A stretch of DNA of 13,632 nt, taken from IMG/VR virus record IMGVR_UViG_2663763282_000004; one strand, given 5' to 3'. The notes under the pieces were generated by a model. The model had not been told where the DNA came from. It was given only the letters and a program-made list of their open reading frames with translations, and did no database searches. A program made the position numbers and the translations under genes. The stretch is from a virus (lineage: Duplodnaviria; Heunggongvirae; Uroviricota; Caudoviricetes). Shown one piece after another: positions 2-11,305 of the stretch; position 1 is the first letter of the stretch, and each line of letters opens with the position of its first letter.

Positions 2-430
<429 letters not shown>

Positions 431-807: not shown

Positions 808-1293
808 TTATTTCAGTTCGTTACCAGGCATTTCTTTTAGCTCTTTCAAATGACAACGATTGAGGCTAAACCACTCCCCGTGCGACCTATAGTTGTAATA
901 TTTTTGGTGCAATTTGGTTTCAAGCTCTCTATCGGCCGGAATCTTTGCAATTAGATTTAGCTTCCCACCACTCATGCGAGATATCTCTGAAATTCGTTTA
1001 TTAACCCTGCGACTAAACCCTATTTTTGTTAGCCCACTATCTTCAGCATGCAGAACGTACACATATGATTTTTGCGAAGCACTGGGTGCGACTTTGTTGT
1101 AATTAATCATGTCAAACATAAAGCCTTGCTTTAGCAAAGTTTCAAAAAAGATAGAATTAACACACCCATTCCTTCTCAGCTCTGCACTTAGCTTGTCAAT
1201 TTCCTCTATGATGTCGCCAGACCCCTTTCCACTTATAAGAAAATCTTGGTACATGCGACCAATTCTTGAGGTAATTTCAACAAAGTTATTCAT
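808..1293 (-). CDS. Cargo protein with C-terminal T5orf172 (GIY-YIG-like, MUG113-type) domain; N-terminal ~75 aa unassigned
   Basis: 161-aa ORF, AGGT RBS upstream of ATG 1293; C-terminal motif series YVYVL...KIGFS...RISEISR...ELETKLHQKY...GEWFSL matches the T5orf172 pattern; locus visibly AT-rich relative to neighbours. Confidence 0.7.
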   Translation of the reverse strand: MNNFVEITSRIGRMYQDFLISGKGSGDIIEEIDKLSAELRRNGCVNSIFFETLLKQGFMFDMINYNKVAPSASQKSYVYVLHAEDSGLTKIGFSRRVNKRISEISRMSGGKLNLIAKIPADRELETKLHQKYYNYRSHGEWFSLNRCHLKELKEMPGNELK

Positions 1294-1637: not shown

Positions 1638-2075
1638 TCATCGAAGGCATTGCGTCCTGATGTACTCCTGCAGGTAGTTAACCTGCGCGGTTATCCTGTC
1701 GATTCCGCTTCGTAGACGGTAATAATTGAGTTCAGCATCTGCTGTAAGTCTTGGGCTTTCTCCATCGCCCATGCTGCTGGCTCCGGTCGTTGACTTTGCA
1801 CAGGTGGCGGCGACTTGCAGGCGCTTACGCCCAGCAGAAACATCAGCACGGAGACTTTCGATAGTCGCGTTAGCATCAGCAAGCTCCTTTGTATATCTGG
1901 CATCGAGTTCTGCTACATCACGTTGACGCTTCTGCATGTCAGCAATTGTGGATGCGGCCTTATCGCGCTGCTCTTTGTAGGCGATGGCGTTATCACGGTA
2001 GTGATTAACAGCCCATGACAGGCAAACGATGATGCAGATAACCAGAGCGGAGATAATCGCGGTTACTTTGCTCAT
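1638..2075 (-). CDS. Rz: Spanin inner-membrane subunit Rz (lambda Rz-like)
   Basis: 145 aa; N-terminal [30 protein letters not shown] closely resembles lambda Rz; start overlaps the R stop. Confidence 0.9.
1691..1876 (-). CDS. Rz1: Spanin outer-membrane lipoprotein Rz1, embedded in +1 frame within Rz
   Basis: Embedded ORF with signal peptide [20 protein letters not shown] (lipobox VSAC) then proline-rich segment [10 protein letters not shown], as in lambda Rz1; start chosen at the internal Met of the 70-aa track ORF. Confidence 0.7.
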
Positions 2076-2548
2076 ACCTCAATCTCTCTGACCGTTCCGC
2101 CTGCCTCTTTGAATTTTGCAATCAGGCTGTCAGCCTTATGCTCGAACTGACCATAACCAGCGCCAGGCAGTGAAGCCCAGATATTGCTGCAACGGTCGAT
2201 AGCCTGACGAATATCACCGCGATCAATCATCGGTAAAGCGCCACGCTCTTTAATCTGTTGCAGTGCCACAGCGTCCTGGCTTTTCGGAGAGAAGTCTTTC
2301 AGGCCAAGCTGCTTACGGTAGGCATCCCACCAACGGGAAAGAAGCTGGTAGCGTCCGGCGGCTGTTGATTTGAGTTTCGGATTTAGCGTGACAAGTTTGC
2401 GAGGGTGATCAGAGTAATCAGTGAATAGCTCTCCGCCAACAATGACGTCATAACCATGATTTCTGGTTTTTTGACGTCCGTTATCAGTTCCCTCTGACCA
2501 CGCCAGCATATCGAGGAACGCCTTACGTTGATTATTGATTTCCACCAT
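2072..2548 (-). CDS. R: Endolysin R (lambda-type lytic transglycosylase)
   Basis: 158 aa, [49 protein letters not shown]... near-identical to lambda R from memory. Confidence 0.95.
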
Positions 2549-2855
2549 CTTCTACTCCGGCTTTTTTAGCAGCGAAGCGTTTGATAAGCGAACCAATCGA
2601 GTCAGTACCGATGTAGCCGATAAACACGCTCGTTATATAAGCGAGATTGCTACTTAGTCCGGCGAAGTCGAGAAGGTCACGAATGAACCAGGCGATAATG
2701 GCGCACATCGTTGCGTCGATTACTGTTTTTGTAAACGCACCGCCATTATATCTGCCGCGAAGGTACGCCATTGCAAACGCAAGGATTGCCCCGATGCCTT
2801 GTTCCTTTGCCGCGAGAATGGCGGCTAACAGGTCATTTTTTTCTGGCATCTTCAT
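2532..2855 (-). CDS. S: Holin S (lambda S107/S105 dual-start holin)
   Basis: 107 aa beginning MKMPEK (Met1-Lys2-Met3 dual-start motif), with [19 protein letters not shown]...; upstream cccc/gggg hairpin (2862-2875) resembles the lambda sdi structure. Confidence 0.95.
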
Positions 2856-2980
2856 GTCTTACCCCCAATAAGGGGATTTGCTCTATTTAATTAGGAATAT
2901 GGTCGGTTACTGATAGAACAAATCCAGGCTACTGTGTTGAGTAATCAGATTTGTTCGTGACCGATATGCACGGGCAAAAC

Positions 2981-3010
2981 GGCAGGAGGTTGTTAGCGCG
3001 ACCTCCTGCC
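2981..3010 (-). other. Perfect 9-bp stem hairpin (ggcaggagg / cctcctgcc, 12-nt loop), possible tR'-like terminator or RNA processing element
   Basis: Inverted repeat seen directly; on the minus strand it is followed by GTTTTG (weak T-run). Confidence 0.3.
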
Positions 3011-3097: not shown

Positions 3098-3173
3098 TGG
3101 TGCTGGTTAACGGACTTGAACCGCTACCCATTCGCTTACAAGGCGACTGCTCTACCATTGGAGCTAAACCAGC
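3098..3173 (-). tRNA. tRNA-Thr (anticodon UGU), phage-encoded
   Basis: Manual fold of minus strand: perfect 7-bp acceptor stem GCTGGTT/AACCAGC, D-arm GCTC-CAATGGTA-GAGC, anticodon loop CTTGTAA, T-arm AGCGG-TTCAAGT-CCGTT, discriminator A, encoded CCA. One G-A mismatch at the base of the anticodon stem. Confidence 0.65.
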
Positions 3174-3178
3174 ATGTT

Positions 3179-3253
3179 TGGCGGGACAGCGTGGACTCGA
3201 ACCACGATAAGAAGGTTAACAGCCTTCCGTAATGACCTTTATACGACTGACCC
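3179..3253 (-). tRNA. tRNA-Asn (anticodon GUU), phage-encoded, slightly non-canonical
   Basis: Manual fold: acceptor GGGTCAG/CTGTCCC (one U-U mismatch at 4:68), anticodon arm GAAGG-CTGTTAA-CCTTC, T-arm CGTGG-TTCGAGT-CCACG, encoded CCA; 5 nt from the Thr tRNA. Confidence 0.5.
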
Positions 3254-3316
3254 AAATAAAAAAAGCCACCGTTGCAACTTAAGAGTCACTAACGGCAGCT
3301 TACCCTCTAATTATGG

Positions 3317-3835
3317 CTAAATGGCTAATTGCATGTCAAGGCTTTTAACGGCAACATGCTTAACTTTCTCAACACGTTTACGCATTTTGAAAGCATTTTG
3401 CATTGGTTGGTACAAAACAAATAACGACGCTTTCAGGATGTCGTCAATTTCATTTCTACAGGTTGCCAGTGAAGGTTTTCTCCATCCCTCACCACCACGC
3501 CCACACATCTTGCGTGGCTTTGCAGTCGCGTGATAGTAGGATGCAATTGCTCGCTTAGATGAACCATGAGCGTAGTAGCTGAGGAGGATGCCAAAGGCTT
3601 TCTTGTCAATGTACATGACGGAATCGACGACCTGAGAAATCAACATTCCATCATCATCATTACACATTGGCCTTGTCATAACTCTTCCCGGCTCTACGCT
3701 CTCCATGAACTTCGCTATTACGCTGCTCATGCGCTTTTCCAGGCGACCTGAGTAAACCCATGCACCCCACAGTTCAAGCCAGCCATTCAGCCAATCGTGC
3801 TGTTCTTTGGTGAGGTTTAGTTCTCTTATGCTCAT
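3317..3835 (-). CDS. Putative late-gene antiterminator Q (non-lambda Q type), assigned mainly by synteny
   Basis: 172-aa ORF located between ninH and the tRNA/lysis block, start overlapping the ninH stop; I do not recognise the sequence with certainty as a specific Q family. Confidence 0.5.
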   Translation of the reverse strand: MSIRELNLTKEQHDWLNGWLELWGAWVYSGRLEKRMSSVIAKFMESVEPGRVMTRPMCNDDDGMLISQVVDSVMYIDKKAFGILLSYYAHGSSKRAIASYYHATAKPRKMCGRGGEGWRKPSLATCRNEIDDILKASLFVLYQPMQNAFKMRKRVEKVKHVAVKSLDMQLAI

Positions 3836-10548: not shown

Positions 10549-10658
10549 CCAGAACTTGAGTGGTTTTGGGGATGGCGCGAATTGCAGCTGCAAGACAGCG
10601 ATCGAGAAGATAAGCACCTCGACGCGTCATGCGCCAAAGCCACTTAAAGGAGACCATC

Positions 10659-10964
10659 ATGGTAACCATTGTCTGGAAAGAATCCAAAGGTACGGCAAAA
10701 AGCCGCTACAAAGCTCGCAGAGCAGAACTTATTGCCGAGCGACGCAGTAATGAAGCACTGGCGCGAAAAATTGCGCTAAAGCTCTCTGGTTGCGTCAGAG
10801 CAGACAAAGCAGCATCGCTAGGATGCCTTTGCTGCAAGAAGAAAGAAGAAGTCGTTCGAAAAAATAGAAGTATTTATTACAAAGATTCAAACCCATTAGG
10901 AAACAAAATACATGCAGTCCAAAAAATAAAATTGTACAGTAAACTACCGTACGGTGCTTATTGA
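10659..10964 (+). CDS. N: Antiterminator N, phage-21-type arginine-rich motif; 3' end mosaic
   Basis: AAGGAG RBS 6 nt upstream of ATG; N-terminal GTAKSRYKARRAELIAERR matches the phage 21 N ARM peptide as I recall it; the last ~40 codons are AT-rich and differ from the relic 3' end found at 11335-11430. Confidence 0.8.
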   Translation: MVTIVWKESKGTAKSRYKARRAELIAERRSNEALARKIALKLSGCVRADKAASLGCLCCKKKEEVVRKNRSIYYKDSNPLGNKIHAVQKIKLYSKLPYGAY

Positions 10965-10966
10965 GT

Positions 10967-11305
10967 ATGCTTATGGTGAAAAAGACTATTTATGTTAATC
11001 CTGACCGCGGACAAAACAGAAAAGTATCTGATAGAGGTCTTACATCTCGAGACAGGAGGAGAATAGCGAGATGGGAAAAAAGGATAGCATATGCATTAAA
11101 AAACGGTGTAACACCTGGATTTAATGCTATAGATGATGGCCCTGAATATAAGATTAATGAAGACCCAATGGACAAAGTTGACAAAGCATTAGCAACACCA
11201 TTTCCTCGCGATGTCGAAAAAATTGAAGATGAAAAATATGAGGATGTAATGCACAGAGTTGTTAATCACGCTCACCAACGAAATCCAAATAAAAAATGGT
11301 CATAG
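10967..11305 (+). CDS. Moron-encoded hypothetical protein (~112 aa, highly charged), unknown function
   Basis: AT-rich ORF starting 3 nt after the N stop (alternative starts at 10961 TTG or 10973 ATG; weak RBS); ends at a strong intrinsic terminator; no recognisable family. Confidence 0.55.
   Translation: MLMVKKTIYVNPDRGQNRKVSDRGLTSRDRRRIARWEKRIAYALKNGVTPGFNAIDDGPEYKINEDPMDKVDKALATPFPRDVEKIEDEKYEDVMHRVVNHAHQRNPNKKWS

Follow-up and report, generated by a model that had tools for sequence, protein, structure and literature searches.

What are two transfer RNA (tRNA) genes doing between the late antiterminator gene Q and the holin gene of a lambdoid prophage, and do the mismatches in their stems mark them as working tRNAs or as decaying ones? 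The question is raised by a stretch of 13,632 nucleotides (nt) of tailed-phage DNA (Caudoviricetes; IMG/VR record IMGVR_UViG_2663763282_000004), analyzed here in its full length and referred to as the window, in which a gene for tRNA-Thr(UGU) lies beside one for tRNA-Asn(GUU) on the minus strand. The analysis indicates that these are the phage 21-type late-leader tRNAs, Asn(GUU) followed by Thr(UGU), that they form the first cargo of the late operon, and that they probably act as nuclease-resistant replacements for host tRNAs, a reading to which we assign a probability of about 0.68.

ARAGORN, run on the complete window, found two tRNA genes only: tRNA-Thr (tgt; positions 3098-3173, minus strand, 76 nt) and tRNA-Asn (gtt; positions 3179-3253, minus strand, 75 nt). 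The spacer between them (AACAU, positions 3174-3178, minus strand) is the same in phage 21, Sf6, and phage L. Both genes match the Rfam family RF00005 over model positions 1-71 of 71, with 61.5 bits (E = 1.5e-11) for tRNA-Thr and 55.3 bits (E = 7.2e-10) for tRNA-Asn, where the gathering score is 29 bits; beyond RF00005, no family reached threshold in an Rfam scan of the window. The first-pass annotation of this DNA, made from the sequence alone, had described two minus-strand tRNA genes 5 nt apart with an encoded CCA, and both programs agree with it in coordinates and anticodons. The CCA 3′ end is indeed encoded in either gene. In the transcript tRNA-Asn comes first and tRNA-Thr second.

The anticodon arms read GAAGG/CUGUUAA/CCUUC in tRNA-Asn and GUCGC/CUUGUAA/GCGAA in tRNA-Thr. 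The Rfam alignment places two non-pairs in tRNA-Asn, one in the acceptor stem (U4·U69) and one in the D stem (U13·U22), and a single one in tRNA-Thr, where G27·A43 occupies the topmost place of the anticodon stem; the U-U acceptor mismatch and the G-A anticodon-stem mismatch noted earlier are thereby located, and U13·U22 comes in addition to them. The tertiary nucleotides U8, A14, G18G19, U33, a purine at 37, and GTTC form a full set in tRNA-Asn. In tRNA-Thr, U8, G18G19, U33, A37, and GTTC are present, and C14 replaces A14. Position 14 is A in nearly all tRNAs, where it is the partner of U8; in tRNA-Thr it corresponds to window position 3160, and in the IMG/VR homologues it is C, or U in four copies, and never A. 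Compared with the host genes, as the first-pass annotation had suggested, tRNA-Thr is 71% identical to thrU and tRNA-Asn 62% identical to asnT. The determinants of charging are retained. The identity elements of E. coli threonyl-tRNA synthetase (ThrRS) are G1-C72, C2-G71, G35, and U36, and tRNA-Thr carries all of them, invariant or nearly so across the homologue alignment. Those of asparaginyl-tRNA synthetase (AsnRS) are G34, U35, U36, and the discriminator G73; these too are present in tRNA-Asn, where the discriminator is G73, with G34-U36 invariant and G73 kept in 16 of 17 distinct homologues. By these identity rules, both tRNAs are predicted substrates for the E. coli enzymes.

The first-pass annotation mentioned Ile/Arg isoacceptors at the junction of Q and the lysis genes, which we take to be a different cassette found at an analogous site in Shiga toxin (Stx) phages. 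In Stx lambdoid phages, ileZ-argN-argO lies between Q and stx/lysis, reads rare Ile and Arg codons, and has a proposed supply role for stx and late genes. The site is analogous to that in the window, with Q/pR′ upstream of it and the lysis cassette downstream; the tRNA species are others, and there is no sequence relationship. With anticodons UGU and GUU, membership of the window pair in the Stx cassette was rejected. Nor is a Thr/Asn pair a new cargo set, as had been supposed: it is already known and has been annotated in GenBank for years. Over the 156 nt comprising both genes and the spacer, identity is 100% with phage 21 (AJ237660) as well as with several Salmonella phages, and tRNA-Asn is also identical in Sf6 and phage L. 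In phage 21 the 156 nt follow the same 50-nt leader and terminator, at the same position after Q; the promoter and Q-binding region upstream of the transcription start differ, and the rest of the prophage is another mosaic. Over the 451 base pairs (bp) that contain the end of Q, the late promoter pR′, the terminator tR′, and the tRNAs, identity is 97%–99% to the Shigella phage Sf6, the Salmonella phages BTP1, SPN9CC, and vB_SosS_Oslo, and the E. coli phages HF4s and Bas106 (97.6% over 451 nt for Sf6, AF547987). These phages show the same order between Q and holin with scattered single-nucleotide polymorphisms only, and most of their records annotate tRNA-Thr/tRNA-Asn there. In the Sf6 record the tRNAs carry the label “similar to phage 21,” alongside entries for pR′, qut, and tR′; the genome paper on phage L places the Asn and Thr tRNAs of Sf6 at this position and calls their expression route unknown; and the epsilon34 paper describes Asn GTT and Thr TGT in P22-like prophages. 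The surroundings of the Sf6 group are mostly those of P22-like podoviruses (Lederbergvirus), whereas the best overall matches to the window include HK022/mEp235-like lambdoid phages, with no record covering 80% or more of the window.

Whether the pair is functional or decaying had been left open by the first-pass annotation. A pair of non-functional pseudogenes, with the mismatches and C14 as relics, would account for U4·U69 and U13·U22 in tRNA-Asn and for G27·A43 and C14 in tRNA-Thr, and the single-sequence minimum free energy z-scores are modest (−1.7 for each tRNA). To set against this are the comparative data, obtained from 20 distinct tRNA-Thr and 17 distinct tRNA-Asn sequences with 500 shuffles and a slid-structure control. 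Four pairs of tRNA-Thr changed on both sides and are still paired (3-70, 5-68, 6-67, and 49-65), giving a covariation score of 0.133 as compared with 0.074 in the shuffles, none of which (0/500) reached the observed value. Six pairs of tRNA-Asn changed on both sides, with a score of 0.159 versus 0.064, again reached by 0/500. In tRNA-Thr, 94.5% of the cells are paired versus 22%–48% in the slid structures; for both tRNAs together the paired share in slid structures falls to 22%–53%. The non-pairs themselves are conserved: G27·A43 is unpaired in 20/20 distinct tRNA-Thr sequences, U13·U22 in 17/17 distinct tRNA-Asn sequences, and U4·U69 in 15/17 (U·U in 109 of 114 by copies). The predictors give no pseudogene-like failure either, ARAGORN calling both genes and Rfam scoring them at about twice the gathering threshold. 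The promoter region next to them has diverged, but the 156 nt do not differ between phage 21, Salmonella phages, and E. coli prophages. Experimentally functional Lys, Thr, and Asn tRNAs of phage T5 also have anticodon-stem mismatches, and a tRNA-Thr identical to that of the window works in vivo. Both genes show the pattern expected under selection, and, because their stems covary, the mismatches are conserved, and the identical phage 21 tRNA-Thr is functional with a published resistance mechanism, the mismatches are conserved features of functional tRNAs with no sign of decay. The matter is thus largely closed in favor of function; covariation and the published activity led us to reject the pseudogene reading, which we consider extremely improbable.

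For tRNA-Thr, the function is documented. The Old nuclease encoded by prophage P2 kills by degrading tRNA-ThrU, and phage tRNA-Thr(UGU) rescues cells by replacing the host tRNA-ThrU (Govande et al., 2025, NAR, PMC12445682). Extra copies of host tRNA-ThrU give little or no protection, in contrast to the phage versions, which protect (Govande et al., 2025, PMC12445682). Among these, the tRNA-Thr of phage 21 (tRNA-Thr21) protects, rescuing Old+Gam+ cells, and resists purified OLD, with Site 1 almost fully resistant (PMC12445682). Resistance needs both an altered CNG motif, the motif being formed by paired nt 28-30 and 40-42 of the anticodon stem, and a shortened stem; Thr21 is described as having the shorter stem plus C28U/G42A (PMC12445682). 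The window tRNA-Thr shows precisely these changes. In the host thrU arm, nt 27-31 are ACUGA and nt 39-43 UCAGU; in the window they are GUCGC and GCGAA. The host CUG/CAG has become UCG/CGA by way of U28 and A42, equivalent to C28U/G42A, and the stem is shortened by loss of the 27-43 pair (G27·A43). The anticodon remains UGU, decoding ACA. The gene is that of AJ237660, and we equate it with Thr21 on the strength of the GenBank record together with U28/A42, the shortened stem, and the resistance at Site 1. The G-A mismatch seen in the first pass is therefore one of the two published determinants of OLD resistance, and the anti-OLD role of tRNA-Thr has been established by others for this sequence, under plasmid expression. 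A literature search found no further paper tying lambdoid tRNA-Thr/Asn to defence, and the text of the BASEL collection paper gives no Old result for Bas106, which has the same tRNA pair.

If tRNA-Thr replaces a host tRNA destroyed by a nuclease, its partner may do likewise. Host tRNA-Asn has been reported as an OLD substrate that is cleaved more slowly than ThrU. It is also, with Lys(UUU) and Thr(UGU), among the main targets of AriB, the nuclease of PARIS, which cuts between nt 40 and 41 (Belukhina et al., 2025); U39, nt 41 (A41), and U16 matter for cleavage (PARIS literature), the D-loop is the proposed binding place of the non-cutting AriB subunit, and UAAUCA is the cleavage-site sequence reported for host tRNA-Lys and tRNA-Thr. 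At these positions both window tRNAs depart from the host, with G39/G41/A16 versus U39/A41/U16 in tRNA-Thr and C39/U41/A16 versus U39/C41/U16 in tRNA-Asn. The host tRNA-Asn contains paired CGG/CCG triplets, and the window tRNA-Asn has no CNG triplets; where UAAU adjoins the AriB cut site, it has UAAC. From these positions tRNA-Asn is probably a replacement for host tRNA-Asn, the slower OLD substrate and a secondary AriB target.

Analogous to the window pair, the T5 variants of tRNA-Lys, tRNA-Thr, and tRNA-Asn together rescue from PARIS, with the T5 tRNA-Lys required for escape (Belukhina et al., 2025). Two of these three anticodons are common to the window, in neither set does U39 adjoin the AriB cut site, and the T5 variants all have a mismatched anticodon stem. 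The same logic, replacement by a nuclease-resistant copy, is proposed for both, AriB resistance in the window being predicted from the nucleotides at the cleavage site. T5 differs in that its tRNA sequences are unrelated and that, as a virulent phage, it makes about 25 tRNAs from early promoters; the window has no tRNA-Lys. An extension of this logic is that the whole Asn-Thr cassette may be dedicated to countering the tRNA nucleases of the OLD Toprim family, which include P2 Old, PARIS AriB, and their relatives. Here tRNA-Asn would be the second resistant replacement; U4·U69, U13·U22, C14 in tRNA-Thr, and A16 in both would help the tRNAs to evade the second subunit of the nuclease while still being charged; and the first place in the late transcript, needing no translation, would let late protein synthesis restart once host tRNAs have been depleted. 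This extension is put forward tentatively, at somewhat under even odds.

The position of the pair suggests how it would be expressed. The genes lie between a Q gene of the phage 21/Sf6-type family (3317..3835, minus strand; PF06530 Phage_antitermQ, E = 1.3e-25) and a holin gene of the lambda S family, the first protein gene of the late operon (2532..2855, minus strand; PF05106, E = 2.4e-30), in keeping with the placement made from the letters alone. The Q open reading frame (ORF) is annotated with identical boundaries as “antiterminator Q family protein” in E. coli NZ_AP021894 and corresponds to gene 59 in Sf6. Overlapping the 3′ end of Q, a promoter scan found the late promoter pR′ (TTGACA, 18 nt, CATAAT; 3310..3339, minus strand; 11/12 matches), and the homologous position in Sf6 is annotated “P R′ (or P Late).” It is followed by a 50-nt late leader RNA (3254..3303, minus strand) that contains the intrinsic terminator tR′, with a hairpin at 3301..3263 and a U-rich tail at 3262..3254. 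The leader (3303-3254) folds with −20.2 kcal/mol (z = −5.4; 0/200 shuffles equally stable), and the long hairpin ends in U7AUUU, with tRNA-Asn beginning at the next nucleotide. The same 50 nt are a misc_RNA named “aRNA” in phage 21 AJ237660 and the tR′ terminator/qut region in Sf6. Thus, the A/T run UUUUUUUAUUU at 3264-3254 (minus strand), directly 5′ of tRNA-Asn, is the U-tract of the tR′ terminator in the pR′ late leader, and the pR′/tR′-like arrangement that had been surmised for it is borne out by promoter, leader, and the annotation of Sf6 and phage 21.

An alignment of this region reveals a mosaic boundary at the start of late transcription. Upstream of +1 (3303/3304), the promoter and Q-binding region is of the Sf6/phage L type, unlike that of phage 21; from +1 on, the window matches phage 21 letter for letter through the leader, the terminator, and the two tRNAs. 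Late-control modules of different Q specificity thus have this tRNA module in common.

Since tRNA-Asn abuts the tR′ U-tract of the pR′ leader, its expression is expected to depend on Q; both this dependence and the excision of the tRNAs are suggested by anatomy and homology. Transcription would start at pR′, at about position 3303. Without Q it would stop at tR′, a single nucleotide short of where tRNA-Asn starts, and Q-modified polymerase would read on through the two tRNAs to the lysis genes. The tRNAs would be released from the late transcript by RNase P and 3′ processing enzymes of the host, and with CCA encoded, no CCA addition would be needed. Indirect support for this route comes from RNA sequencing of the BTP1 lysogen, which implies abundant reads for both tRNA genes, with the lytic operon starting right after them. 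In a cell in which the Toprim nuclease P2 Old has cut the anticodon arm off host tRNA-ThrU, the copy supplied by the phage would keep ACA codons readable, escaping cleavage through U28-A42 in place of C28-G42 of the CNG motif and through the unpaired G27·A43 that shortens the stem. tRNA-Asn would do the same job for host tRNA-Asn.

The same anatomy could be read as RNA-processing punctuation, in which the tRNA folds would chiefly give RNase P/RNase E a place of entry, so that the leader with its terminator is separated from the late mRNA or the mRNA is stabilized, and decoding is secondary. RNase P cleavage would remove the leader precisely, because tRNA-Asn begins right after the tR′ U-tract, and the first-element position in the late transcript is kept across phages of different Q and Q-binding element (QBE) types; the phage L authors, moreover, call tRNA excision from late mRNA unknown. 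P22 and lambda, as the phage L paper points out, run a like late operon without tRNAs. The anticodons and aminoacylation identity elements, needless for punctuation, are conserved, and Thr21 restores ACA decoding. We regard punctuation as the main role as quite improbable.

A second stem-loop lies between tRNA-Thr and the holin gene (GGCAGGAGGU...ACCUCCUGCC then GUUUUG; 2975..3010, minus strand), with a 10-bp GC-rich stem that is included in the fold of segment 2960-3030 (minus strand; z = −2.2 for the whole 71 nt). The phage L record has a predicted terminator at the equivalent place, and the stem-loop is a possible weak terminator. Speculatively, if 2975-3010 stops polymerase lacking Q, leakage through tR′ could provide the tRNAs without the lysis genes in lysogens.

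The tRNAs may also simply supply the phage, enlarging the pools for phage-preferred codons and speeding late protein synthesis, independently of defence. To ascertain how codon usage bears on this, codons were counted in a prophage with the identical Q-tRNA-lysis module (L002) and compared with 42 K-12 genes; L002 was used because the window, for which no record reaches 80% coverage, does not include the structural genes of its own prophage. Of the codon enrichment that the first-pass annotation had proposed to look for in the late genes, the ACA part was found and the Asn part was not. Among Thr codons, the share of ACA is 25% in the late genes and 27% in the early ones as compared with 10% in K-12 (odds ratio ∼3, p < 1e-6), or 14.4 versus 5.4 per 1000 codons, with 24 per 1000 in the capsid gene. 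Host tRNA-ThrU has been described as low in abundance, which again favors supply, and the phage L paper proposes an Asn supply, citing 24/25 AAC codons in the capsid gene. Asn codons, in contrast, are not enriched in L002 (36.7 versus 37.7 per 1000, p = 0.84). E. coli has a single Asn isoacceptor with four gene copies, and a phage GUU tRNA would therefore add no decoding capacity. The ACA enrichment is equal in early genes, whose translation precedes the synthesis of the tRNAs. Supply fails to explain the conserved 27·43 non-pair and the loss of the CNG motif beside covarying pairs, and extra host tRNA-ThrU gave little or no rescue in the OLD study (PMC12445682). Supply may contribute in the case of tRNA-Thr, without accounting for the Asn gene or the conserved arm features; as the explanation of the pair it is unlikely.

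A set of observations weighs against the replacement reading. The tests of protection by Thr21 relied on plasmid expression from a constitutive promoter, outside the natural late operon. In that operon the tRNAs would be made only after Q, and early translation would therefore be unprotected. Q itself shows no clear avoidance of ACA, with one ACA in 172 codons, although with only four Thr codons the count is uninformatively small. The 2.5-fold enrichment of ACA in the prophage with the same module makes a plain supply role for tRNA-Thr possible. The window, whose end falls short of the abc/gam position, yielded no RecBCD inhibitor of the Gam/Abc2 type, Ocr-like protein, or other known OLD/PARIS trigger. 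At identities to host genes of only 71% and 62%, chance would account for some of the departures at key positions. tRNA-Lys was found by ARAGORN neither in the window nor among the 120 related IMG/VR matches listed, and since tRNA-Lys(UUU) is the species that AriB primarily targets, a cassette without it would probably not overcome B185 PARIS alone.

Two related cassettes add to these points. P1 (AF234173; L008:2501-2654) has Asn(GUU) and Thr(UGU) in the same order, 2 nt apart, plus a tRNA-Ile, and its tRNA-Thr is ∼80% identical to that of the window. The P1 pair differs in lying in the ban operon region and in keeping a full 5-bp stem with host-like CUG/CAG in tRNA-Thr and a host-like UAAUCA in tRNA-Asn; with motifs like those of the host, P1 is therefore without the resistance signatures seen in the window. 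The Klebsiella phage ST16-OXA48phi5.2 and its IMG/VR relatives have homologous Asn and Thr genes after Q that keep G27·A43 and U4·U69. They differ in inserted Phe and Arg(UCU), in some cases also Gly, genes and in compensatory acceptor changes, and the Asn arm has C28-G42, which recreates paired CAG/CUG triplets. As a separate observation, the pairing of Asn with Thr recurs in unrelated temperate coliphages, P1 and those of the window type.

Phage-borne tRNA sequence can also arise by integration, and the pair could be fragments of host tRNA genes, duplications of the attP type. Many lambdoid and P22-like phages do integrate into tRNA genes and carry partial copies, for instance of thrW and argU (phage L and epsilon34 papers). 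The genes in the window, however, are full length and diverged from thrU and asnT to the extent given above, and they sit between Q and holin, not beside int, and are kept in phages with different integrases. An att-site remnant was rejected on the grounds of the wrong place and the full-length genes, and its probability is negligible.

The cassette is widespread and varies in content. The pair was found in 369 of 5,426 complete E. coli genomes (∼7%). A scan of IMG/VR with a 20-nt piece of tRNA-Asn gave at least 120 loci; among the 120 matches listed, 96 have Asn followed by Thr, 10 more have Thr plus extra Phe, Arg(UCU), or Gly genes, and seven have Asn followed by Gly(UCC) without Thr. Expanded cassettes run Asn, Phe(GAA), Thr, Arg(UCU), sometimes with Gly(UCC) added (L015, L073, L076, L086, and others; L007 is Klebsiella ST16-OXA48phi5.2). 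In locus L117 the order is Asn, Thr, Gly(UCC), with the Thr gene ∼70 nt downstream of the match to the search pattern. This tRNA-Thr is a chimera: nt 1-26 are of the phage 21 type and nt 27-76 are identical to K-12 thrU, including the OLD-sensitive CUG/CAG arm. Being half phage 21-type and half thrU, it has a recombination junction inside the tRNA gene. The second tRNA of Salmonella phage L (L006:1501-1572), published as tRNA-Leu(UAA), aligns full-length to the Thr21 gene with a 4-nt deletion and a rewritten anticodon arm, and the filtered ARAGORN list reports it neither as Thr(tgt) nor as Leu(taa). It looks like a diverged tRNA-Thr derivative of uncertain identity rather than a standard long-arm Leu tRNA.

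Beyond the holin gene, the late operon continues on the minus strand with the endolysin gene (2072..2548; phrog_90, E = 1.6e-63), which gave no match at E ≤ 0.001 in the Pfam scan and whose ORF, with identical boundaries, is named “glycoside hydrolase family 24” in RefSeq, and the gene for the Rz spanin subunit (1638..2075; PF03245 Phage_lysis, E = 8.1e-37). An ORF of 161 amino acids (808-1293, minus strand) that lies just downstream of Rz, a position typical of morons, has T5orf172/MUG113 domains and matches phrog_4284 (function unknown). Past the lysis genes, ORF 35-430 (plus strand) at the window's left end has the integrase-core transposase domains rve and rve_3. Phage and E. coli matches to the window start only at ∼460, and an insertion sequence element may have cut short or disrupted the prophage's late region. 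On the other side of the window, genes for an N-like antiterminator (phrog_271) and a Nun-like termination factor (phrog_5632) are adjacent at 10629-11305 (plus strand), at the start of the early-left operon. Nun is the exclusion factor of HK022 against lambda. In the early-left operon, where the window comes to its end, only N-like, Nun-like, DUF2528, cIII, Erf, SSB, and small ORFs associated with recombination were found.

In 2025, the tRNA-Thr member of this pair became a worked example of how a tRNA from a temperate phage can counter an abortive-infection nuclease encoded by a prophage. The present analysis adds that the apparent mismatch in its anticodon stem is a resistance determinant, invariant among homologues in which neighboring pairs covary. 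If the Asn partner is a second anti-nuclease tRNA, small temperate phages may carry minimal sets of tRNAs tuned to particular defence nucleases.

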